From Mytilus californianus (lineage: Eukaryota), in NCBI RefSeq assembly GCF_021869535.1, contig NW_026262679.1, positions 92,647,982 to 92,711,981 of the forward strand: a stretch of DNA of 64,000 nt, given 5' to 3'. The notes beneath the pieces are model-generated. The model saw only the letters and a list, made by a program, of their open reading frames with translations, did no database searches and was not told the origin of the DNA. Both the position numbers and the translations under genes were made by a program. Positions 10,086 to 62,110 of the stretch are shown piece after piece; position 1 is the first letter of the stretch; every line of letters begins with the position of its first letter.

Positions 10086-10984
10086 CATGTTATAAACAGT
10101 TATGTTATAAAATGCCCCGGTATGAAAAAATGAGAAATCATTTAAAAGAAAAAAACGCTGTATCTGTATTACCTTTAGATAATGATGTTTATTCCTAACA
10201 TAAACCCATATTGAAAAGAAAAGATGGGAGTAATATGCAAAAGCAAGACACAATACAATTTCATATGAAACTCATAAATCTCGAAAACATATGCGGTGTG
10301 AATCTAAATTTTTCAATAAACTATAGAGCTTCATCTTCACATGTGTATCCGGGATCGTTTTCCGTCTTCCTCAAGCAAGTTTGAAAAGCAATTCATATTG
10401 ATGAAGATAACAAATGTTTTCATATATATTTACCTGCAAAATCGCTAAATATGTTCATGAAAAAGCATTATAGGTCTGCTATATACAACTTTTTATACAG
10501 CCATTGTATGAGGGTTCTTTGAATTTTAGACATAAACAAAAACATGTCTATCCAAAACAATTTTGTAATCACATAGCCCGGTAAGCAGAAAGGCAAAATA
10601 GATTTTCAAAAATATTTAATATGCACTAATGTGGGATGGTCATTTTTATATAGACACCAATAGGAGGCGAATTGGAACTTAGACAATTTACTGTGAAAAA
10701 AAGGCATAGGATAGCAAATTCTCAGTACCAAAAACAAGATGTGTGGCATAAACTTAAACAAACCAGAGTTAAGTTCTTGTTTTGTATTTTCTTTTATGCA
10801 CGTTCTGTTAATCTATACTGTCAGATTCAAAAGGGGGAGGGTTGAGACCTACAAAAGAAAGTTTAACTCGAACACATTTTCATATACATGTACTGGTACC
10901 TGTCCAAATTTGGGGACCTCGTAAGTAGTTGTCGTATGTCATATCTTATTTGTTTTCGTTATTAGGAGAATGTTTGTGTTTATA

Positions 10985-14349: not shown

Positions 14350-14450
14350 ACCTTCCAGACTTGCGACAAGCACAAAAAAGTCATGAAGATTTGGCATGGT
14401 TAAACATGTTTGTGAGCACTCAACCTCCCTCTAACTTGGAAAAATGGTGT
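14350..14450 (-). repeat. Fragment carrying the PLE 3'-UTR hairpin motif
   Basis: 'gacttgcgacaagcacaaaaaagtcatgaagatttggcatggttaaacatgtttgtgagcactcaacctccctc' is a diverged copy of 'gacttgggacaggcgcaaaaatgcggcggggttaaacatgtttatgagatctcaaccctccc' (15321-15385). Confidence 0.45.
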
Positions 14451-15065
14451 ATCCACCAGAGCGCCAATAAAAAAAGTATACAAACATTGTGAAACGATTT
14501 TTTAGTCAGTTTAAAGCACCGACCATTCATTATTTTTAGGAGTTGATTCTTACTTTTGTTTTAGGTAATTTTATATTAGAGTCGAGAACAATTGTTTGTC
14601 CTAAGACTCCCCCTCACATAAAAAAACACGAATTTTGTTTGTCTTTTTTTGTTTTTATCGGATGAGTCGTTATTGAGAAAGTAGGTAATTAAGTAACATC
14701 TGATAAGAAGGTATCCCAGTTAGCTGTTTTTCTGCTTGAAACTAATCTTTCAAAGTCACCTTGCTCTATCACCGAATTTCTGCTTACCATGAGCAACATG
14801 ACGTGTGCCACTAGACGAGCAGGATCTATTAACCCTTTCAGAGCACCTGATATTACACCCAGTTTTGTTGGGTTCGTGTTGCTCAGTCGTTTGATGAAGT
14901 TTACTAGAGTTGTTTGCCTTTTAGTCGTCTTTCGTTCTTTGTCATGGCCTTGTCAGTTTTCTTCCACTTATGAATTTTGAATATCCCTTGGAAATATCCG
15001 CCTCTTTTTTGGTTTATGTAACTTGTATCTCTTTTCTTCTGTCTCATCTGGATTTTTTTTTTACA

Positions 15066-18000
15066 TAATAAAATTGAGAATGGAAATGGGGAATGTGTCA
15101 AAGAGACAACAACCCGACCACAGAACAGACAACAGCAGAAGGCCACCAACAGGTCTTCAATGCAGCGAGAAATTCCCGCACCCGGAGGCGTCCTTCAGCT
15201 GGCCCCTAAACAAATATATATACTAGTTCAGTGATAATGAACGTCATACTAAACTCCAAATTGTACACAAGAAACTAAAATTAAAAATAATACAAGACTA
15301 ACAAAGGCTAGAGGCTCCTGACTTGGGACAGGCGCAAAAATGCGGCGGGGTTAAACATGTTTATGAGATCTCAACCCTCCCCCTATACCTCTAGCCAATG
15401 TAGAAAAGTAAACGCATAACAATACGCACATTAAAATTCAGTTCAAGAGAAGTCCGAGTCTGATGTCAGAAGATGTAACCAAAGAAAATAAACAAAATGA
15501 CAATAATACATAAATAACAACAGACTACTAGCAGTTAACTGACATGCCAGCTCCAGACTTCAATTAAACTGATTGAAAGATTATGTCTTCATCATATGAA
15601 TATCAGGCACAATCCTTCCCGTTAGGGGTTTAGTATCATACCATCATAACATATATGAGAAGAACATAACCCGTGTCATGCCAACAACTGGTTTTTAAAT
15701 AAATGTGTTTAGTGCAGATGCAAAGACCTTATAAGTGAATCAATATCAACGCCAAAATATGCAATCTTTAATGACCTGACAACAGTATCGTAACTATATC
15801 CCTTCTTAATAAGTCTATTTAAAGGTTTTGTTAGTTTCAGAGGTGAATACTGACATTTTTGTGCTTTATAAAGAATATTTCCATAAAAAATTGGATGTGA
15901 AATACCTGAACGTATAAGAAGTCTGCATGTTGAGCTATATTTACGAATGATGTCCTTATACCGATGATAAAATTTAGTAAATGTTTTGACTAGTTTGTGA
16001 TATCGAAAACCCTGGTGTTATAATTTTTCAGTAATACATACATTTCTCTCGTTAAAATCTAAAACATTGTTACATACACGAGCGAATCGTACAAGTTGAG
16101 ATATATAAACACCGTAAGATGGTGACAAGGGAACGTCACCATCTAAAAATGGATAATTAACGATAGGAAATGAAAAATCATCTCTTTTATCATATATTTT
16201 AGTATTAAGCTTTCCGTTAATGATATAGATATCAAGATCGAGGAAAGGGCAGTGGTCATTGTTAGTATTAGCTTTATTTAAAGTAAGTTCAACAGGATAA
16301 ATTTCTTTAGTATACATACTGAAGTCGTCATTATTGAGAGCCAAAATATCATCCAAATATCTAAAAGTATTATTAAATTTGTGTATCAGATGTTGTTTCG
16401 ATGGGTCTTTACTGATTTTTGTCATAAATTGTAACTCATAGCAATACAAAAAAAGGTCCGCAATAAGTGGTGCACAGTTAGTCCCCATTGGAATTCCGAT
16501 AACCTGACGATATACGGAATCTCCAAAGCGAACAAAAATGTTATCTAGTAAAAATTCAAGGGCATATATAGTATCAAAGCATGTCCAATTGACATAGTTT
16601 TTTTGTTTATTGCTACTAAAAAATGACCTAAAAGAGTTTGAACATATATATTCACATTCTGACTTTTTAAATGCCCATTTAATTAGGTGTGTGAATTTTT
16701 TCTTAATGAGAATGTGAGGCAATGTGGTATATAGGGTAGAAAAATCAAAACTTTGAACAGATTCAAAATCACCAATATATGCATGCAATTTATCAAGTAC
16801 TTCCAACGAGTTTTTGACACTCCAAAAGTAATTAATTCCACTATTTTCGAAGGCCTTATTTGAACAATTTATTATCAGGTTTTTGATTGTACCAAGTGTA
16901 CTGGTAAGAAGAATAGACAATTTAGTAGTGGAACAATGGCTTGAAGACGAAATGAATCTATATTTGTAAGGTGTTTTGTGTAGCTTCGGAAGCCAATACA
17001 TAGTTGGGACTTTCATTGTATTTGGTTCTGCTTGTAAAGCGGTAGCTAAAAGTTTATGTTTGTTACAGATGTCGTTTTCTGAAAATGGAGTCAGTTGGAA
17101 TGTTGGTGAATTGGTGATTTCTTTTTTCAGAACCTCAATGTAAAATTTACGTCAAACAATAATAATATTATTAGCAGCTTTATCGGCCGGGACAAAAACA
17201 AATTCCTTGGCTAGTTCTTTTAGTTTATGTTTGATACGAGAAATAGGTTTATTGTGGTTATTGTTAAGAGTAAAATGTTCTTTAAAATGTTGAATACGTA
17301 TATCAACTATGTTCATTACTGATTTAAAAAAAGAGTCCAAAGATTTTTTGTCAGCTTTTTCCCGTTTTATCCATTTCAAACAGTAAGTATGGAGTGAGTC
17401 GTGGATGATATTACGACACTCATTCCAATTAATAATTGACGGGGGACGATATTTAGGTCCTTTACTGAGGAATGATTTTAACTCTCGGTCTTGAACGATG
17501 TTAAGATCTCCTGTTATAACATGGGAAATGGGTCCATAAATGTATTCGGAATTACTGCAATTACATGAAGTAGGTGTATTTTCACTGATATTAACATCTT
17601 TACACAATTGGCTATAATTAAACACAAATTTCCGGGTAGATTTCTTGTAAATATAACAAATAAGAGGGAGCTCAGTATTATCAAAATATCCCGGAATTTG
17701 TTCTTTAACAGAATGGTCGTTAAAAATACCGGCAATATTTACAAAATCAAAACCTTTATTGACATACTTTATTTTAATAAACTGTTTTTTATGATCTTCA
17801 GGGCGATCAATTTTGGGAAACAGTTTAGAATAACAATATGCCATTATAATTTGAACGATTTCATACTTAGGACTGCTATATGAAATTGTGTTGCAATCCT
17901 CTAAAATTTTATTTAACTTATTAACCGGTAATGAACAGAGCTTTGTTAACAGATAATGTCTGCCGTTGTTTTTTGAAATAGAAATTAGGTCCGAAATATT

Positions 18001-19087
18001 GGTATGATTGGTCCGAAATTTTCTTTGATTGCGATTTTTTCTACGACCATGAGAACGGTTTTTACGAACAGTTTTAGAAACTATATCCAAAATGTTAACA
18101 GAATCGGTTCTTGATATATTACCAATTCCCATGATATTATCATTAAGACCGAGAGGGTAGACAGTCTGTAATTTTTTAATCCAATTTAATTCAATTATTT
18201 TCCGCGATCGTACAAACTTTGAATGAGATTCACCAGGCTGCTTATTTACTACTTCTAAAGGTTGAACTGCTAAATATTTAATAGGATGATTGTGCTTCTT
18301 AAGGTGTTGATAAATGATACTTTTGAATTTATTGGGTCTTTTAAAACGATACAGATGTTCTTGAGTGCGTTTAGATAAATATCGTCCAGTTTCACCTACG
18401 TACTGAATACCGCATCCCGGTTTGTTTCATGTGAGTAAATAAATTATACTGTTTGTTTTTCAAGTTATATCAGTTTCAAAATTTAAAGAAAATGTGCGAC
18501 CATTAAACGTGGACCTTACCGTATTGTTGGTGGAAAGACGGGGACATGTAAGTCATTTTTTGGCATGACACTTATCGATAGAAGGGTAACCACGATTTTT
18601 ATTGTTAAAAATGTTAGCGATGGTAGTATTTTTAGATAAGCGATTTTGAAGATTGAGACGTGTAGATACCCTTTGAACGAGTTTAGTATTTAATATTTTT
18701 CCATTTCTAAGCTTCATATTTGTTTTTTGTTTGTGAATTATATTAGAAAGGAGCAAAGACTGGCGTCCAGAATATGAACCAGCATACAATGAATTAAATT
18801 ATGTAAAAATGATAAATCTGTTCGGCTAAAGATGTCAAACGCTATCCGTATTAATTACCCGAAAAAGAAAGGGTATATTAGGGTAGCGACTGACGTCTGA
18901 CTAAATAGTAGAATGGGGCTGAATATTGAAATACTACTTTTTGATAAATATTCCTAAAGTAATGAACTAGAGAAGTTCTCGCTCGGACACACACTCCATA
19001 ATCTAGTATATTATAAGAGCATAAACCTGAAGCACGGGGAGGCACTCTACTGTCTCCACACGGCACTAAAGACAAACTCTGTAAAAA
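15066..19087 (-). mobile_element. Full-length Penelope-like retroelement (copy A1), permuted domain order: N-terminal GIY-YIG EN - CxC linker - RT (Naiad-like)
   Basis: It is ~4.0 kb. On the minus strand it holds a ~300-nt 5'UTR, one long reading frame from 18789 to 16018 and a ~640-nt 3'UTR. It abuts the 3' end of the truncated copy A2 at 19087/19088 and is ~99% identical to A2 over 3 kb. The 3' flank is a T/A homopolymer (15050-15060). Confidence 0.85.
16018..18789 (-). CDS. PLE polyprotein: GIY-YIG endonuclease + CxC linker + reverse transcriptase; single frame containing 4 in-frame TGA codons (candidate selenocysteine codons); truncated in this copy by a TTA>TAA change at 16018-16020
   Basis: ORF-track entries 18553..18789, 17152..18132 and 16018..17016 are all in the same frame, with every start coordinate divisible by 3. 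They are separated only by TGA at 18555-18553, 18462-18460, 18429-18427 and 17154-17152; no TAA or TAG occurs in 923 codons. The GIY-YIG domain reads 'IIYLLT*NKPGCGIQYVGETGRYLSKRTQEH...IIELNWIKKLQTVYPLGLND' (18456-18130). The linker carries the CxC motif 'TSCNCS', then 'VPADKAANNIIIV*RKFY'. The RT reads 'YWLPKLHK...YRFISS', 'YRQVIGIPMGTNCAPLIADLFL' and 'FRYLDDILAL'. The first start-like codon is TTG at 18789; the first in-frame ATG is at 18717. Confidence 0.8.
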
Positions 19088-22000
19088 ATAAAATTGAGAA
19101 TGGAAATGGGGAATGTGTCAAAGAGACAACAACCCGACCACAGAACAGACAACAGCAGAAGGCCACCAACAGGTCTTCAATGCAGCGAGAAATTCCCGCA
19201 CCCGGAGGCGTCCTTCAGCTGGCCCCTAAACAAATATATATACTAGTTCAGTGATAATGAACGTCATACTAAACTCCAAATTGTACACAAGAAACTAAAA
19301 TTAAAAATAATACAAGACTAACAAAGGCTAGAGGCTCCTGACTTGGGACAGGCGCAAAAATGCGGCGGGGTTAAACATGTTTATGAGATCTCAACCCTCC
19401 CCCTATACCTCTAGCCAATGTAGAAAAGTAAACGCATAACAATACGCACATTAAAATTCAGTTCAAGAGAAGTCCGAGTCTGATGTCAGAAGATGTAACC
19501 AAAGAAAATAAACAAAATGACAATAATACATAAATAACAACAGACTACTAGCAGTTAACTGACATGCCAGCTCCAGACTTCAATTAAACTGATTGAAAGA
19601 TTATGTCTTCATCATATGAATATCAGGCACAATCCTTCCCGTTAGGGGTTTAGTATCATACCATCATAACATATATGAGAAGAACATAACCCGTGTCATG
19701 CCAACAACTGGTTTTTAAATAAATGTGTTTAGTGCAGATGCAAAGACCTTATAAGTGAATCAATATCAACGCCAAAATATGCAATCTTTAATGACCTGAC
19801 AACAGTATCGTAACTATATCCCTTCTTAATAAGTCTATTTAAAGGTTTTGTTAGTTTCAGAGGTGAATACTGACATTTTTGTGCTTTATAAAGAATATTT
19901 CCATAAAAAATTGGATGTGAAATACCTGAACGTATAAGAAGTCTGCATGTTGAGCTATATTTACGAATGATGTCCTTATACCGATGATAAAATTTAGTAA
20001 ATGTTTTGACTAGTTTGTGATATCGAAAACCCTGGTGTAATAATTTTTCAGTAATACATACATTTCTCTCGTTAAAATCTAAAACATTGTTACATACACG
20101 AGCGAATCGTACAAGTTGAGATATATAAACACCGTAAGATGGTGACAAGGGAACGTCACCATCTAAAAATGGATAATTAACGATAGGAAATGAAAAATCA
20201 TCTCTTTTATCATATATTTTAGTATAAAGCTTTCCGTTAATGATATAGATATCAAGATCGAGGAAAGGGCAGTGGTCATTGTTAGTATTAGCTTTATTTA
20301 AAGTAAGTTCAACAGGATAAATTTCTTTAGTATACATACTGAAGTCGTCATTATTGAGAGCCAAAATATCATCCAAATATCTAAAAGTATTATTAAATTT
20401 GTGTATCAGATGTTGTTTCGATGGGTCTTTACTGATTTTTGTCATAAATTGTAACTCATAGCAATACAAAAAAAGGTCCGCAATAAGTGGTGCACAGTTA
20501 GTCCCCATTGGAATTCCGATAACCTGACGATATACGGAATCTCCAAAGCGAACAAAAATGTTATCTAGTAAAAATTCAAGGGCATATATAGTATCAAAGC
20601 ATGTCCAATTGACATAGTTTTTTTGTTTATTGCTACTAAAAAATGACCTAAAAGAGTTTGAACATATATATTCACATTCTGACTTTTTAAATGCCCATTT
20701 AATTAGGTGTGTGAATTTTTTCTTAATGAGAATGTGAGGCAATGTGGTATATAGGGTAGAAAAATCAAAACTTTGAACAGATTCAAAATCACCAATATAT
20801 GCATGCAATTTATCAAGTACTTCCAACGAGTTTTTGACACTCCAAAAGTAATTAATTCCACTATTTTCGAAGGCCTTATTTGAACAATTTATTATCAGGT
20901 TTTTGATTGTACCAAGTGTACTGGTAAGAAGAATAGACAATTTAGTAGTGGAACAATGGCTTGAAGACGAAATGAATCTATATTTGTAAGGTGTTTTGTG
21001 TAGCTTCGGAAGCCAATACATAGTTGGGACTTTCATTGTATTTGGTTCTGCTTGTAAAGCGGTAGCTAAAAGTTTATGTTTGTTACAGATGTCGTTTTCT
21101 GAAAATGGAGTCAGTTGGAATGTTGGTGAATTGGTGATTTCTTTTTTCAGAACCTCAATGTAAAATTTACGTCAAACAATAATAATATTATTAGCAGCTT
21201 TATCGGCCGGGACAAAAACAAATTCCTTGGCTAGTTCTTTTAGTTTATGTTTGATACGAGAAATAGGTTTATTGTGGTTATTGTTAAGAGTAAAATGTTC
21301 TTTAAAATGTTGAATACGTATATCAACTATGTTCATTACTGATTTAAAAAAAGAGTCCAAAGATTTTTTGTTAGCTTTTTCCCGTTTTATCCATTTCAAA
21401 CAGTAAGTATGGAGTGAGTCGTGGATGATATTACGACACTCATTCCAATTAATAATTGACGGGGGACGATATTTAGGTCCTTTACTGAGGAATGATTTTA
21501 ACTCTCGGTCTTGAACGATGTTAAGATCTCCTGTTATAACATGGGAAATGGGTCCATAAATGTATTCGGAATTACTGCAATTACATGAAGTAGGTGTATT
21601 TTCACTGATATTAACATCTTTACACAATTGGCTATAATTAAACACAAATTTCCGGGTAGATTTCTTGTAAATATAACAAATAAGAGGGAGCTCAGTATTA
21701 TCAAAATATCCCGGAATTTGTTCTTTAACAGAATGGTCGTTAAAAATACCGGCAATATTTACAAAATCAAAACCTTTATTGACATACTTTATTTTAATAA
21801 ACTGTTTTTTATGATCTTCAGGGCGATCAATTTTGGGAAACAGTTTAGAATAACAATATGCCATTATAATTTGAACGATTTCATACTTAGGACTGCTATA
21901 TGAAATTGTGTTGCAATCCTCTAAAATTTTATTTAACTTATTAACCGGTAATGAACAGAGCTTTGTTAACAGATAATGTCTGCCGTTGTTTTTTGAAATA

Positions 22001-22117
22001 GAAATTAGGTCCGAAATATTGGTATGATTGGTCCGAAATTTTCTTTGATTGCGATTTTTTCTACGACCATGAGAACGGTTTTTACGAACAGTTTTAGAAA
22101 CTATATCCAAAATGTTA
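19088..22117 (-). mobile_element. 5'-truncated PLE copy (A2) directly upstream, in element orientation, of full-length A1: pseudo-LTR tandem arrangement
   Basis: Homology to A1 (offset ~4020) runs from the element 3' end at 19088 up to 22117. There the sequence diverges ('aacagaat|aagactag' versus A1 'aacagaat|cggttcttga'), so the EN domain and the first three TGA sites are missing. Confidence 0.85.
19729..22110 (-). CDS. Linker + RT portion of PLE polyprotein (copy A2), continuous frame with one in-frame TGA (21174-21172); intact RT C-terminus ending at TAA 19731-19729
   Basis: ORFs 21172..22110 and 19729..21036 share one frame. The 435-aa RT ORF keeps 'ITEKLLHQGFRYHKL...' where A1 has a stop. 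Confidence 0.75.
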
Positions 22118-23346
22118 ACAGAATAAGACTAGATATTAATTGATTAAAATTTAAATCTTTATTTTGTCATGATCCATGTGAAGAGATTTTTATTCATGTT
22201 TCTCAGGTTTGGAAACTTTGGAAACTTTTGAAATAAATTTTATAAGAGTTATAATCTTGGTGAATTATAAAGACTACAATCTAGAACAAATTCAATTTAG
22301 TTATGCGACCAATGTTAACATATAGCTTTCACATGTGGACAGCACCAAGCTAAAGTTTTCCCGAGACACTATTTAGTTTGCGTTCTTGTCTCCCAGTTTC
22401 TATCCTGTGGTTACTAAACCTAAATTAAGTACAAATTCTTCGTTTGTAAACATTGATAATTTTTAAGTGACTCTCAAAATTGAATAAATTTTGGTTAGTA
22501 GATTGTTCCATGAACATGTTTACACAGGTAGTAAACACTCACTCACTAGCTATACAGTAAATATGGTGTCCGGTTGAGATTGTGTTTTTTTTGGAGTGAA
22601 TCGTTCCACTTTTTCGAAAGCAGACCTTGTTTTTTCGAGTGAAATTACATATGATAAAATCAATTTACTTTTATTCCGCAAGTATATCACTTTTATTCAA
22701 TACTTGCCAACTTATTTTTAATAATATTCAAGTTTTGAACATTAACTACGCATAATTGTCCCCTATTTCATTTAAAAATACCGAAAATAGTACTAAAATG
22801 GTAAGAAAATTAAATCATTGTCAATTACAAAAAGATAACAAGACACATGCTGTAAATTGTTAATTTTTTAAATCATAGTTTGATGGTCCGACCTTAGCAA
22901 CTTTTGAATAACTGCAATAAAAGCGCTGTCTCTTTAATATATTGGTAATTCTCTAGTATTTGATGATATTTTTGTCTGGTGAACTTCCTCTTTTAAATGG
23001 ATTAGATATCCAGAAAGATATCCATTGTTTGAGCAACAATAAAAAAAATAACCGCTGGATAGCTATCCAATGGATAGACTGTTTATCCATTGGATAGGCT
23101 ATCCAGTGGATAACTTTATCCAACGTTTTGAGCAACTCAGTCCAGGACACCATCTGGTAAGAATATATGGTCATTTTCATGAGTGTAATGGCATACGAAT
23201 AAATGTTATAAAGCTTACACCAAAGGAATTTTAAGGTTAAGGTTATTTCTTGTTTTTATAACAATATTAACGAAGATATCAGAAGAGACTATTTGGTTTT
23301 CAAGAAATTGCTAATAGGTGTTAAAGAGTTATTTGAAAAAAGGTAA

Positions 23347-24210
23347 ATGCCAATTAGTAAATTACATAATAGTTATAACGAGTGTGATACTATATCATTT
23401 TTCAGTCCAAAATATGAGTGTACACGCATTATTACAGCTTTTTGTCACCATAGACTGTTTCCTCAAACTGACAAACCTGAAGATCATAAAAAGTATTTTC
23501 TAAAAATAAAATACATTAACAGATGTATTGATTTCATTAATTTGTCTAGTATTTTTCATGACTCTACTGTTCAAAACTTTATACCTCCATATCTTGATAA
23601 CATTGAGCCACCTATAATTTCTTATTCGTATAAAAAAAAGAACAGTAGAAGTTTAAATTTTAATTATACGTCAGTTACATCAGACGTCAGTATAGAAAAT
23701 AATGCTCCTTCAACATGAGACTGTGAAACATCGACTGAGTTTAGATATGATCCCTATGGCCATGTAATTACAGGGGACCTCAACATAGTTCAAGACCGAG
23801 AGGTTATAAACTTTCTGAAAAAAGGACCAAAATATCGTCCACCGTCGAAAATAAATTGGAAAGAGTGTCGTCAGGTTATTATAGATGCTCTTTCATCCTA
23901 CTGTAAAAAAAATGGTGTAAACGGGAGAAATATGACAAAAGGTCACTTGAATCCTATTTAAATAAATGTCTGAATATTGTTGATATTCGCATACCACGTT
24001 TCGAAAATAATTTAGAAATAAATAAAAGAAAGTAATACGCCCATTTCTAGGATTAAATTCAAGTACTCTTAAAGCGTTTTGTGTTCGTACCGGCCGACAA
24101 AGCAGCCAACACTGTGATGATGGTATGACGTAAATACTACACAGAAGTCCTTAAGAATGAAATTATACATTTAGCTACATAAAATTAAATAAATAAATAA
24201 TCTTTATTTC
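23347..24210 (+). pseudogene. Element B linker-domain remnant; TGA at 23716-23718 aligns with first Cys of the CxC motif of A1, TGA at 24126-24128 aligns with the A1 TGA at 17154-17152
   Basis: B reads '...NNAPST*DCETSTEFRYDPYGHVITGDL' where A1 reads '...ENTPTSCNCSNSEYIYGPISHVITGDL'. B reads 'PADKAANTVMMV*RKYYTEVL' where A1 reads 'PADKAANNIIIV*RKFYIEVL'. The flanking nucleotides have diverged but the TGA is retained. A frameshift lies between the two blocks. Confidence 0.6.
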
Positions 24211-25175
24211 AAGAGGATAATCCCATTAGTGAAAACTAATCTTCCTGAGAGTCCTCAAAATAATAATAACATATTTATAAAGTGCATTCAATATTATAAT
24301 GATATATGCACAATATACAATTTTATATAGATATTAATGAAAAAGCATATTAATTTGCACAATTTATGAAAACATTTGTAACATTTTGTTTTAAAAGATA
24401 CAAGTGTATTACTCATCTTTATTTCATTTGGTAAACTGTTCCATATTTGAGAACCAGAATATATAAATGTTTTCTTAAAAAAAAAATGTTTTTGGCTTTC
24501 GAAGATGTAATAGCTTTTCATCAGCTGAACGTGAATTATAATTTTGATTATCAGTAAAATGAATGTTTTCTTGTAAATAGTTAGGAACCATATCCTTTAA
24601 TGATTTAAATACAAGTATTGCCTTTTGATATTGAATTCGTTTTTCCACATTTAACCATTTTAAACTATTAAACAATACACTGGAAGATGTCATTATGTCA
24701 GCTTCTACTATAACCATAGCAGATTTCTTTAATAACTTATTAAGTTTGTTTATTCCACTTTCATATCAACAACCCCATATATTGCAACAATAATCAAACA
24801 ATGGCAGATTATAAGCATTAGAATAAATGATACGTTTATGCATAGGTAAATACTTTCTTATCTTTTGTAATAAGTTGATTCTATTTGATATTGTACATGA
24901 CATTTTATCTATTTGCTCATTCCAATTTAGGTTTTTGTCGATACATAAACCAAGAAGTTTTTCACAATCTACATTCTCTATTTGTTCATCTGAAATATTG
25001 ATATCTAAACTGTTCCCAGTTGAATAAAGCCTTTCTTTTGAACCAATTATCGTTGATTTACATTTTTTGGCATTTAGTTAAATATTAAGTATTAGTTCAA
25101 GGCCGTACGCTCCACAGAGAGTCATATAGTAAATAATCATGTCACTACCACAGCTCAGCTTAAGGCCTCCTTTGA
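24185..25175 (-). mobile_element. CR1/L2-like LINE 3' fragment (RT C-terminal region + conserved C-terminal tail) nested inside PLE element B
   Basis: The minus-strand translation reads '...VDCEKLLGLCIDKNLNWNEQIDKMSCTISNRINLLQKIRKYLPMHKRIIYSNAYNLPLFDYCCNIWG...', then '...SVLFNSLKWLNVEKRIQYQKAILVFKSLKDMVPNYLQENI...R...KTFIYSGSQIWNSLPNEIKMSNTLVSFKTKCYKCF'. It splits B between 'RKYYTEVLKNEI' (24170) and 'MYWLPKLH' (25190). Confidence 0.65.
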
Positions 25176-25179
25176 ACAT

Positions 25180-26370
25180 TTGAAGGTCCCCACTATGTAT
25201 TGGTTACCTAAACTACACCAAAAAACCCCGTAAAATATCGTTTCATCTCGGCCTCTAGTAAGTGTTCTACTACTAATCTTTCGGTGCTTTTAACGAGTTC
25301 CTTAACTACTATCAAAGAACTTATCATTCATTTTTGTAAAAAAAAAATATGAAAATAGTGGAATTAACCATTTTTGGAGTGTAAAAAATACTTTGGATGT
25401 TTTAAAAAAATTACGCGCATTTGAAGGTCCTTTTGATTCGGTGGACAGTTTTGACTTGTCCACTCTTTATACTACACTTCCACTCAATCTTATTAAACAA
25501 AATTTTCCTATCTATTTTAATGGTCGTTTGATAAATCTGATTGCAAAATTATTTGCTGCAAATCATATAAAGCCTTTTTCTCAATTGAGAAAGGTAAATA
25601 TGCTAGATATACTTACTGGAGGTATGATTAGATGATTAAAGCCGTAAATTTTCTCCCTGACAACATTTATGTACGTTTCGGCAATACAGTTTATCGACAG
25701 GTTGTATGTATGTTCCTATACTGTTATGAATCACAGTTTATGGCAAAACTCAGCAAAGAACAGTCTAAATTCTATTTAATTGATAATTAATTCTTGATGA
25801 TATTGTTTTCGTTAAATAATCAAGAATTCTCTAAATATGCTGCTGAAATTTACCCAAAGGAACTTACTTTAAATAAACCAAATATTTACAGTGATAATTG
25901 TCCTTTCATAGATTTAGATATTTCAGTGTTACACCAGAAACTCTACACAAAAATTGGGGATGATTTTTCTTTTCCTAGTGTTAATTTTCATTTTTTGGAC
26001 GATGATGTTCCTTTGGCACCGTCTTACGGTGTTTATATATCCAAACTCGTTCGTTAAGCCCGTGTCTGTAGTGACGTTTTGGATTTCAATGAGCTTAATC
26101 TATGTATTATTAGAAAATTATTGTGTCAATGATTTCGTTACCACGCATTAATTAAAACCTTTACTAAATTCTTCCATAGATACAAAGATTTGGTTTGCAA
26201 GTTTGGCTGTACCTGTAGAAAACTTATTTCAAACGGAATAGCACATCCTAAATTTCACGGTGATGTTGTTAACCGAGCCCGGAAATTTAGATACGATCGG
26301 GTAAACATATCAATCCTTTATATAAACTTATTCTGAAAGGTCACCAATTCAACACTGTAATAAATCTTTG
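25180..26370 (+). pseudogene. Element B reverse-transcriptase remnant (frameshifted, internal deletions)
   Basis: See the element B entry. ORF-track fragments 25393..25635 and 25794..26057 are homologous to the A1/A2 RT. Confidence 0.6.
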
Positions 26371-27449
26371 AATATTGTTTTCATTGGTATGAATATTGAT
26401 TTTGTAATCAGTAAATTAAAACCATACTAAATATGATTGTTATAAATATATGTTATTTCACGGTACTACAATCTGTCGATATCTATATTTTAGCATTGCA
26501 CAATGTCATGTTTTTCTCTGACTGTTAATGACGTCTTTACACTAAATCCATTGGATGTTAGATGTATACTGATTGATATTTTAGTCTTAAATACACGATT
26601 TGTTTTGTTAGTTGTTATTGGCCTTGAACTAGCTGTCAGTAACTACAAGTACTATCAGATCTGTACTTAATGTCTTTTTGTTGTTAGGGATGAGGGATGG
26701 ATACATACCCTGCCACGTCCGGTCCGTGATTTTGTATGATGTTTTTCTGCTTTGTATCGATCTGATGAGTTAAGCCTTTTTCGACAGATTTTTATAGTTT
26801 GTTCTTAAGTTGTGCTGTTACAACACTGTCCCAGTTTAGGGGAGGGTTGAGCGCTCACAAACATGTTTAATCCCTCCACATTCTTTATGTGCCTGTCCCA
26901 AGTCAGGAGCCTGTAGTTCAGAGGATGTCGTTGGTTCATTGTCTGTCATATTTTTTTTTCGTAAATTATTTTGTTATAAATTAGGCCTTTATACAGTTTT
27001 CTCAGTGGAATTGTTTCATATTTGTCATGTCGGGGCCTTATATGGCCGACTATATGGTATGGGTTTTTCTCATTGTTGAAGGCCGTACGGTTGCCCACAA
27101 TTGCTTACATTCACTTTATTTGAACTTTGGTGGATAGTTGTCTCATTGGCAATCATACCACATCTCCTTATTTTTATATTCATCATTTAAAAAACATCCG
27201 TCTTTTTTATGATAATGTTCCTCTTCGGGAGGATTTACTTATAGTACAATGAAAGGATTAAGATAATTATTAATGGAATCAAACTTATGTGTTGTCTTTT
27301 CCTATATGTGAGCAAATTGAATATTTCTTTTATCAAATATTATCTTTTTAATACTTGGAGGTTCACATTGCAAGTAACCTCATGTCGATTAAAGCTTGAC
27401 ATGTTTTCAATTGTCGAAGATCGTATGTATCCTGATATCTAAATAAAGA

Positions 27450-27990
27450 GCTGCGCCATGAACGCATGATACGCCCGTCGCTTTTTCAAAGAATAAAGTT
27501 CCATAACTCCTCAATGTCATATCAGAAATTTATAAAAAAAAACTAAAGGGATGTTATTTTAATAGATATAAAACAGTCACCAAAGTTTTATGAAAACTGC
27601 TCAAAGCACTTTTGAGTTATTGTCCGAAAACTGGAAAATCCCATTTTTTATGAATAAAACCCCATAACTCAGAATCTAAAATTTATAAAAATCGAAAGGG
27701 AGCTGACGTCACTAGATACATGTATAAACAATTCACCAAAGTTTCACGAAAATTGCTTAAAGCATTTTTGAGTTATTGTCCAAAAACTGGAACCCCCCTT
27801 TTTTAATGAATAAAACCCCATAACTCAGAATCTAAAATTTATAAAAATCGAAAGGGAGCTCATGTCAATAGAGATAAACAATCCACCAAAGTTTCATGCA
27901 AATTGGTTAAAGCGTTTTTGAGTTACTGTCCGACATGTTGACGATGGACGGATGGACAACGGTATACCATAATACGTCCCGTAAACGGGC
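27450..27990 (+). mobile_element. pearl/Helentron-like nonautonomous element (three ~140-bp internal subrepeats, GACGG tail, terminal hairpin)
   Basis: It starts 'gagctgcgccatgaacgcatgatacgcccgtcg', like the element at 7180. It carries three subrepeats ('aaaatttataaaaatcgaaagggagct...caccaaagttt(c/t)a...') and ends 'gttgacgatggacggatggacaacgg...gtcccgtaaacgggcat' (hairpin). Confidence 0.55.
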
Positions 27991-48529: not shown

Positions 48530-48870
48530 AAACTCTACATTGGCTAGAGGTATAGGGAGAGGGTTGAGATCTCACAAAACATGTTTAACCCCTCCGCATT
48601 TTTGCGCCTGTCCCAAGTCAGGAGCCTCTGGCCTTTGTTAGTGTTGTATGTTTTTTTAATTTAAGTTCATTTATATGTTTTGGAGTTTAGTGTGACGTCC
48701 ATTTTCATTGAACTAGTACACATTGTTTAGGGCCCAGCGGAAGCCCGCCTCCGGGTGCGGGATTTTCTCGCTGTTTTGAAGACCCATTGGTGGCCTTCGG
48801 CTGTTTTCTGCTCTTTGGTCGGGTTGTTGTCTCTTTGACACATTCCCCATTTCCATTCTCAAATTTATCT
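48530..48870 (+). repeat. 3'-terminal fragment (~330 bp) of a PLE related to A1/A2
   Basis: The segment reads 'ggctagaggtatagggagagggttgagatctcacaaaacatgtttaacccctccgcatttttgcgcctgtcccaagtcaggagcctctgg', then 'gggcccagcggaagcccgcctccgggtgcgggattttctcgctg...gggttgttgtctctttgacacattccccatttccattctcaaatttat'. This is collinear with the A1 3'UTR in RNA orientation. Confidence 0.7.
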
Positions 48871-61589: not shown

Positions 61590-62110
61590 TTGGCATTGTA
61601 CAATGTCATGTTTTTCTCAGCCTGTTTATGAAGTCTTTAACTAAATCCAGTGGATGTGTACTGATTGATTTGTCTGAGAGACATGATTTATTTTGAAGTT
61701 TTATCAAATAGGCCTTGAACTACCTTCTATAACTGAGAACCCTTAGATCTGTACTTCGTGTCATAGGTATATTTTTTAGTTGCTGTTTTTGCTTTGTGGT
61801 GATCTGATGAGTCAAGTTTTTTCAACTGGTTTTCACAGTCGGTTCATATGTTGTCCTGTTAAACAACTATCCCAGGTTAGACAGAGGGTGGAGTGCTTGA
61901 AAACATGTTTAACCCCACCACATACTGTATGTGCTATCTACTTCAGTGGTTGTTGTTGGTTGCTGTCTATCATATTTGTTTGCTATTTGTTATGTACATA
62001 TATCAGGCAGTTGGTCTTCTATCATTTGAATTGTTTTATATTGTCTCATGTCATGGGCCTTTTATAACTTACTATACGGTATGGGTGATGCTCACTGTGT
62101 GAGTCTGTAT
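61590..62110 (+). repeat. PLE family-B 3'-UTR fragment (~520 bp)
   Basis: It is collinear with 26480-27090: 'cattgtacaatgtcatgtttttctc', 'gatctgatgagtcaag', 'ggttagacagagggtggagtgcttgaaaacatgtttaaccccacc' and 'ggccttttataacttactatacggtatgggtgatgctcactgt'. Confidence 0.55.

Follow-up and report, generated by a model that had tools for sequence, protein, structure and literature searches.

A Naiad-type retroelement of Mytilus californianus whose four in-frame UGA codons are probably decoded as selenocysteine

The window analysed here is a stretch of 64,000 nucleotides (nt) from contig NW_026262679.1 of Mytilus californianus, and between positions 15067 and 22124 it contains a tandem repeat with a period of 4020 bp. 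The repeat consists of two copies of a retroelement that, judged by its predicted protein motifs, is a member of the Naiad clade of Penelope-like elements (PLEs), namely A1, a full-length unit, and A2, a shorter copy lying head-to-tail upstream of A1. The long open reading frame (ORF) of A1 contains four in-frame UGA codons, all of which align to conserved cysteines of Cys-type Naiad proteins, and its stop codon is followed by a selenocysteine insertion sequence (SECIS). The features of the locus are the following, where U denotes selenocysteine (Sec):

15067-19086, minus strand: A1, full-length Naiad unit of 4020 bp (5' untranslated region (UTR), ORF and 3' UTR), delimited by the repeat period and the junction sequences.
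19087-22124, minus strand: A2, tandem copy truncated at its 5' end and starting at about codon 206, in a pseudo-long-terminal-repeat (pseudo-LTR) layout; from comparison with A1, translation and tblastn.
18718-19086, minus strand: 5' UTR of 369 nt, conserved in the related loci L003, L004 and L001.
15709-18717, minus strand: single ORF of 1002 codons plus TAA, encoding a GIY-YIG endonuclease, a CxC linker and a reverse transcriptase (RT), in that order; from translation and homologues.
18139-18570, minus strand: GIY-YIG endonuclease region, amino acids (aa) 50-193, with a C-x4-U-x2-C finger, a U before GIY, a U/C/H/H motif, YVGETGR and the catalytic E and N; from motifs and alignment to Cys-type Naiads.
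18553-18555, minus strand: UGA-1, codon 55, second Cys of a CX2-5CxxC zinc-finger-like motif; this and the other three UGAs from codon reading and alignment.
18460-18462, minus strand: UGA-2, codon 86, the Cys preceding GIY-YIG.
18427-18429, minus strand: UGA-3, codon 97, first Cys of the CCHH motif inside the GIY-YIG core.
17557-17565, minus strand: CxC motif C385-N-C387, TGT in A1; its first Cys is TGA in L001/L006, L011, L012 and copy B (see below).
17152-17154, minus strand: UGA-4, codon 522, the Cys 8 residues after DKA.
16168-16992, minus strand: RT core, aa 576-850, with LPKLHK, FDFSTLY, IPMGTNCAP, RYLDDI, LDLDI and YDKRDDF; from motifs and the Pfam matches of homologues.
16018-16020, minus strand: TTA>TAA nonsense change at codon 900, private to A1.
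15593-15657, minus strand: SECIS with AUGA...AAA...UGAU, helices I and II and an apical mini-stem; Rfam SECIS_1, 31.7 bits, E=4.8e-4 in a 1.2-kb search.
15067-15708, minus strand: 3' UTR of 642 nt, alignable over its full length with L001 3460-4110.

When the minus-strand frame was read again from 18789, the four TGA triplets were found exactly where the initial annotation had placed them (18555-18553, 18462-18460, 18429-18427 and 17154-17152), with no other stop before the TAA of codon 900 (16020-16018); beyond it, the only in-frame stop is the terminal TAA at 15711-15709. Just upstream of 18789 there are eight in-frame stops of all three kinds. The ORF has 1002 codons from the first ATG (18717) and 1026 when counted from the upstream stop, in agreement with the roughly 1026 codons that had been estimated for a composite of A1 and A2.

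The predicted protein opens with the finger C50-x4-U55-x2-C58 (aa 50-58), followed by GIY...YVGETGR with its embedded CCHH-type motif (aa 91-121), where U97 and C102 lie within 'IIYLLT-U-NKPGC-GIQYVGETGR'; the finger and the CCHH position both align with Cys in homologues. Next come the catalytic E and N (175-193), a KR-rich block (218-233), the CxC motif (385-387) within the linker TSCNCS (383-388), GPKYR (419-424) and DKA (512-514) within PADKAANN (510-517), and then the RT motifs. FDFSTLY (657-663) and IPMGTNCAP (742-750) are separated by 78 residues, a stretch that may contain the IFD, the insertion that Naiads have between RT3(A) and RT4(B). Across the alignment, both CxC cysteines are conserved at 90% or more, and the D, K and A of DKA are invariant.

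The permuted domain order had led to the proposal of a Naiad-type PLE, and indeed the motifs match the published definition of the clade (PMC8557442): the endonuclease lies N-terminal to the RT, the CCHH motif is accompanied by the finger, CxC is present, the RT entrance reads DKA and not DKG, the insertion has a pseudo-LTR layout with 5' truncation, and the unit measures 4020 bp. Published Naiad units are 3.4-4.4 kb long, form partial tandem (pseudo-LTR) insertions and are devoid of a canonical hammerhead ribozyme (PMC8557442). Across 14900-22300, the Rfam models for the hammerhead ribozyme gave no match at E up to 5-10. The flanks of the insertion are AT-rich and not (TA)n, so that the preference of the clade for (TA)n microsatellites is not seen here; this preference is a tendency and not a requirement (PMC8557442).

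Homologues were collected by a word-indexed search, which returned 44 relatives (E down to 0), and by an exhaustive search with residues 98-521, which returned 2757; cysteine sites were then compared in an alignment of 26 sequences that includes Cys-type Naiad proteins. Pfam recognises GIY-YIG in 15 of these 26 members and RVT_1 in 10. At the three endonuclease UGA sites, the aligned homologues that cover them carry Cys, with one exception. At the site 8 residues after DKA (DKA+8), Cys is found in 24 of 25 aligned homologues, and the 25th, protein P0002, has W where the underlying DNA reads TGA. This W is an artefact of gene calling with genetic code 4. UGA-3 thus falls on the first Cys of the CCHH motif, as had been supposed when it was assigned to a zinc knuckle in the GIY-YIG domain. 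The suggestion that UGA-1 forms a redox-type U-x-x-C motif found no support, and we dropped it; according to the alignment the motif is the conserved Cys finger of the endonuclease, of which UGA-1 is the second Cys.

The initial annotation had also cited the second copy, given as about 99% identical, in favour of recoding. A2 is even closer than that, with 3 differences from A1 in 3038 positions (16019, 16206 and 17352; 0.1%), but it covers only UGA-4 (at 21174-21172) and is most likely a product of the same insertion event as A1. Support for UGA-1 to UGA-3 therefore comes from loci outside the window. A metagenome scan yielded six loci, among which L003 is 97.0% identical to A1 in nucleotide sequence, and L004 and L005 are 94.5% identical. 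All three have uninterrupted ORFs of 1002 codons, with TGA at codons 55, 86, 97 and 522, TTA at codon 900 and TAA at codon 1003. L001/L006 is more distant (75.6% nucleotide and 77% aa identity to A1, without gaps in 999 codons); it has TGA at codons 55, 86 and 97, TGT at codon 522, and TGA in place of Cys385, the first Cys of CxC. Neither TAA or TAG nor a frameshift occurs at these positions in L003-L005 or L001.

More widely, codon 55 is TGA in L001, L003, L004, L005 and L012, and Cys in L010 and L011. Codon 86 is TGA in every Sec-type relative whose contig includes the endonuclease (L001, L003-L005, L010, L011 and L012). Codon 522 is TGA in A2, L003-L005, L002, L010, L012, L016 and copy B, TGT in L001/L006, and Cys in L007 and L008, in the last two from the protein reading rather than from codons.

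The ORFs are under purifying selection. Within the A1 lineage (synonymous divergence, dS, 0.11-0.28), the ratio of nonsynonymous to synonymous divergence (dN/dS) is 0.10-0.11, and between the A1 and L001 lineages, where dS is about 1.9 and thus saturated, it is 0.07. Nucleotide differences in the ORF comparison number 149, 122 and 462 at the first, second and third codon positions. The sequence downstream of each TGA is likewise codon-constrained, as had been expected under recoding: dN/dS is 0.05-0.16 for the segments that follow the TGAs, and for the segments between UGAs it is 0.05-0.24 where computable, the 10-codon segment 87-96 being too saturated to give a value. Intact ORFs of 1002 codons in which TGA occurs only at Cys-homologous sites, while synonymous sites are saturated, represent a pattern far beyond chance.

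A search of the 3' UTRs for SECIS elements, proposed as a check in the initial annotation, was positive for A1 and A2 and also for related families. In A1 the element lies in sense orientation 51 nt past the stop, and an identical sequence occupies 19677-19613 in A2, after the stop TAA at 19731-19729; beyond these twins, no further match was obtained in the 15 kb searched. The fold has a z-score of -3.8. At the equivalent position, SECIS_1 scores 32.3 bits in L003, 30.9 in L004/L005, 28.0 in L001/L006, 26.5 in L010, 28.4 in L012 and 36.5 in L002, the last of which exceeds the Rfam gathering score. Of the UGA-bearing families that were followed through the 3' UTR, only L016 has no SECIS after the stop.

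Among 7 distinct sequences from 5 families, compensatory double changes are found in 16 of the 18 base pairs of the SECIS. A structure-guided alignment was used here; plain MAFFT/RNAalifold misaligned the GC-rich element of L002. In this alignment 93.7% of cells are paired; shifting the 3' partners by 1-3 columns lowers the figure to 34-48%. Although the alignment was fitted to a structure model, covariation is borne out by these shifted controls and by the conservation of the loops.

Conservation is not confined to the SECIS. Compared with L001, the 3' UTR shows mostly 52-85% identity per 40-nt window, with blocks of 90-95%, e.g., 'GGTCTGGAGCTGGCATGTCAGTTAACTGCTAGTAGTCT'. That it can be aligned at all although synonymous sites are saturated points to functional constraint beyond the SECIS.

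We consider it highly probable that the locus represents one insertion of a Naiad-clade PLE whose full protein requires the four UGAs to be decoded as Sec. An RNA of roughly 4 kb would carry the single 1002-codon ORF, and the SECIS about 50 nt into the 3' UTR, together with host machinery (SBP2, eEFSec and tRNA-Sec), would direct Sec insertion at UGA. The four Sec residues would replace cysteines of metal-binding type, three of them in zinc-finger-like motifs of the endonuclease and one past DKA at the entrance of the RT. The protein would presumably act by target-primed reverse transcription, nicking the target and making a DNA copy of its own RNA, a process that may give rise to tandem and 5'-truncated copies. 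We infer both Sec insertion and this mode of transposition from the sequence. Three outcomes had been named beforehand as speaking against recoding, namely family copies without a SECIS-like structure, TGAs that are private lesions of A1 and A2, and neutral substitution downstream of each TGA. None of them was observed, and the recoding interpretation is supported.

Several observations nevertheless weigh against this interpretation. The SECIS score of 31.7 bits is below the Rfam gathering score of 35, which is why Rfam in gathering mode returned nothing across the whole window. The fitting of the SECIS alignment to the structure model built here biases the pair counts upward. On the window protein alone Pfam gave only noise, the protein being too divergent to have a match of its own, and domains were thus assigned through homologues and motifs. 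No tRNA genes were found within the 64-kb window, and hence no tRNA-Sec there. Decoding of UGA as Sec is generally inefficient, and a protein that needs four such events should be made with low efficiency. Finally, the TAA at codon 900 of A1 cuts off the conserved last 102 residues (dN/dS of codons 901-1002, 0.16), so that the locus itself probably yields no functional protein.

The initial annotation had noted that this TAA is private to A1, and this holds, since A2 and all four independent relatives carry TTA. With A1 interrupted at codon 900 and A2 lacking the endonuclease, the locus is probably non-autonomous, most likely a copy that died recently and whose family persists in intact form elsewhere. 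The divergence of only 0.1% between A1 and A2 marks a very young insertion, as had been proposed. The head-to-tail junction '...CTCAATTTTATT|TTTTACAGAGTTTGTC...' recurs in the independent contigs L003 and L004, which makes the tandem layout a property of the insertion mode of the family; a tandem or pseudo-LTR layout is also present in L002, L005 and L009.

The inefficiency of Sec decoding also lends something to the alternative that survives best, in which the main effect of the UGAs is to attenuate or terminate translation, so that short N-terminal peptides are made and rare Sec insertion limits the transposase or couples it to selenium supply. Selection would then act on the throttle rather than on Sec chemistry, which is compatible with decoding of the UGAs as Sec. 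The swap of Sec and Cys at codons 385 and 522 between sister lineages indicates that Sec is not chemically indispensable there, and up to five UGAs occur in L012. However, the UGAs are found exclusively on cysteines of metal-ligand type and not on arbitrary codons, which argues for a role at the level of the residue, and the pre-GIY and first CCHH (CCHH-1) sites are TGA in all Sec-type families with endonuclease sequence. We therefore regard attenuation as the main role of the UGAs as unlikely.

Decoding of UGA as something other than Sec, be it through a reassigned code (UGA as Cys, as in Euplotes, or as Trp) or through near-cognate read-through, is less probable again, and we regard it as very unlikely. 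An alignment of UGA with Cys alone is equally expected if UGA encodes Cys, and P0002 displays Trp at one TGA, albeit through the gene-calling artefact described above. However, only 4 of the 29 Cys-position codons of A1 are TGA. Between the A1 and L001 lineages, 9 of 20 conserved Cys codons differ by an exchange of TGT and TGC, whereas TGA persists at 3 of 5 sites, and this speaks against TGA as a plain synonym of the Cys codons. A reassigned code also has no need of the covarying SECIS found right after the stop, and four successive near-cognate read-throughs would leave almost no full-length protein. That the TGAs are inactivating lesions of a dead element, shared by A1 and A2 as duplicates, is scarcely credible: A1 does have one genuine nonsense mutation and A2 is not independent of it, but on independent contigs, at a divergence of 3-24%, the same TGAs lie in intact ORFs whose dN/dS is about 0.1 and whose 1002 codons contain no frameshift, the TGAs are confined to conserved Cys positions, and a SECIS is present.

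Decoding of the UGAs as Sec is also in line with what is known of the clade. Selenoprotein-encoding Naiads from bivalves and spiders, of which the initial annotation was aware, were reported by Craig, Yushenova, Rodriguez & Arkhipova 2021 (PMC8557442), who described four Sec-Naiad families with three or four UGAs and a grade-A SECIS; in the literature consulted, selenoprotein-encoding transposons are described only there. In the published families, Sec takes the place of the Cys ahead of GIY-YIG, of the first Cys in CCHH, of the Cys at DKA+8 and of a Cys in CX2-5CxxC (PMC8557442). The clam elements Naiad_Mmer (Mercenaria mercenaria) and Naiad_Scon (Sinonovacula constricta) share with the window element the order GIY-YIG, CxC, RT, the pseudo-LTR or tandem insertions, the lack of a hammerhead, UGA at the pre-GIY Cys, the first CCHH Cys and DKA+8, a total of three to four UGAs and a SECIS near the stop. 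The fourth UGA differs, being at the second finger Cys in the window element and at RT6(D) in Naiad_Scon, while Naiad_Mmer has three UGAs only. The SECIS of the window element starts 51 nt after the stop, as opposed to 1-21 nt or an overlap in published families (PMC8557442). Judged by the published descriptions of their UGA sites, then, neither Naiad_Scon nor Naiad_Mmer corresponds to the window element. L009/L010 look more like Naiad_Mmer, with three UGAs and a SECIS that overlaps the first non-UGA stop.

The spider elements Naiad_Sdum and Naiad_Smim resemble the window element in having UGA in the CX2-5CxxC finger, at the pre-GIY Cys and at DKA+8; in Naiad_Sdum the first and the second finger Cys are both Sec. 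Unlike the window element, they have no UGA at the first CCHH Cys (PMC8557442). The spider Naiads lack an IFD, and the Sec transitions of spiders and clams are considered independent (PMC8557442). Cys-type Naiads (e.g., Penelope-2_CGi of Crassostrea gigas and, in the present alignment, P0003-P0025) have the same architecture and 26-36% aa identity to the window protein over about 85-90%, but carry Cys codons at all four positions and need no recoding of UGA. Selenoprotein P and other multi-Sec selenoproteins offer a parallel in which several UGA-Sec codons are served by 3' UTR SECIS elements through processive recoding, although Selenoprotein P is an unrelated protein from a host gene and usually has two SECIS elements, against the one found here. 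The phenomenon has been known since 2021, and nothing here is conceptually new beyond that work. Three details are new: Sec at the second finger Cys, earlier seen only in spiders, is combined in one lineage with the clam-type CCHH Sec; among relatives, Sec is present at CxC, a site not listed in the 2021 paper; and L012 is a family with five UGAs, above the reported maximum of four.

Several members of the wider set of UGA-bearing relatives were read at the DNA level. In L010/L009, TGA occurs at pre-GIY, CCHH-1 and DKA+8, the finger is all Cys, and the SECIS overlaps the end of the ORF. TGA occurs at pre-GIY, CCHH-1 and CxC in L011 and at DKA+8 in L016, and L012 has TGA at all five sites in an intact ORF of about 1001 codons followed by a SECIS. 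The UGA-bearing families (L001/L006, L002, L010, L011, L012/copy B and L016) are 41-80% identical to the window protein; among full-length proteins that have Cys at each of the four sites, none exceeds the 36% identity of P0003. In L007 (58-66% identical), DKA+8 and CxC are both present on the contig and both Cys.

In protein databases these elements leave a characteristic trace. At least 7 representatives of 50% identity clusters terminate exactly at '...DKAxNNxxxV/I', and at least 6 terminate exactly before the CxC cysteine; such ends are what gene callers leave behind when they cut an ORF at TGA. Prokaryote-style calls in public metagenome data split the ORFs of L002, L001, L009 and L012 at every TGA, and the call P0002 (L002, position 7066) renders a TGA as Trp. 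Consequently, Sec-type Naiads are present in protein databases only as fragments.

L007 and L008 (58-69% aa identity), whose contigs do not include the endonuclease regions, have Cys at DKA+8, yet SECIS-like stem-loops follow their stops, with an AUGA...UGAU core in L007 (2298-2358) and a degenerate UUGA...UGAG core in L008 (about 1790-1850). L008 has TGA at the position of Cys434, and its contig ends short of CxC.

A further Naiad lies in the window itself, in inverted orientation and head-to-head with A2 at a distance of about 1.2 kb:

23347-26312, plus strand: copy B, a decayed, 5'-truncated Naiad of a different Sec-type family, interrupted at 24180-25113; 49-54% aa identity.
26520-26586, plus strand: weak remnant of a SECIS within copy B's 3' UTR, found with covariance model R1 built here (15.4 bits, E=0.57), not significant alone.

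Copy B belongs to the same family as L012 and has TGA at the first Cys of CxC (23716-23718) and at DKA+8 (24126-24128). We considered it as an inverted truncated copy of the kind typical of PLEs and rejected this; its low protein identity, its decay and its interruption make it a separate, older insertion.

By parsimony, we infer an ancestor of A1, L001 and copy B with five UGAs, from which A1 would have reverted codon 385 and L001 codon 522. On balance, we lean towards a single diversified Sec-Naiad radiation that comprises the window element, L001 and copy B, is common in marine and aquatic metagenomes and goes back to an ancestor with Sec at five sites (second finger Cys, pre-GIY Cys, first CCHH Cys, first CxC Cys and DKA+8). 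Relatives were indeed found in several marine and aquatic metagenomes, and together with the published host range this is consistent with a bivalve host.

Some further features were noted in the window. The distal half of the Naiad 3' UTR recurs at 48534-48868 on the plus strand as a copy of 335 bp with 88.5% identity, which extends to the conserved terminus '...TTGTTGTCTCTTTGACACATTCCCCATTTCCATTCTCAA'; this copy represents either an insertion truncated so far from its 5' side that it lacks the SECIS, or a non-autonomous element with the same tail. A module of 40-80 nt, 'GGGTTGAGATCTCAyAAACATGTTTAACCCCGCC...CCTGTCCCAAGTCAGGA', is found repeatedly, both in 3' UTRs belonging to different Naiad families, that of L008 included, and elsewhere in the window, where its positions are 15330-15385 (minus strand), 26839-26916, 14398-14433, 61884-61923 and 10832-10880; it may be a 3'-end recognition module common to these elements or to derivatives resembling short interspersed elements. 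Downstream of copy B, at 27577-27933, lies a 156-bp tandem repeat (2.3 copies, 86% matching) that apparently has no relation to Naiad. No host genes were recognisable among the window ORFs of at least 95 aa, and the family profile gave no match to PDB sequences. Look-ups of two window ORFs by exact sequence were likewise without a match. The result of a scan for bacterial promoters and terminators was disregarded because the element is eukaryotic.

An additional family with intact independent copies, purifying selection across its UGAs and a covarying SECIS strengthens the case that Sec-encoding transposons are real and not rare. It also bears on annotation, as pipelines interrupt such an ORF wherever TGA occurs or render the codon as Trp. 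For studying the role of Sec in a zinc-finger-like nuclease motif, natural material is offered by sister lineages in which Sec and Cys replace each other at defined sites. If the radiation outlined above is real, Sec-encoding retrotransposons form an old, species-rich lineage with ongoing turnover between Sec and Cys, and are not one-off rarities; transposition of Sec Naiads would then depend on the selenium status of the host. Lastly, Sec Naiads spread SECIS-bearing 3' ends through genomes and are thus a possible source of new selenoprotein genes.

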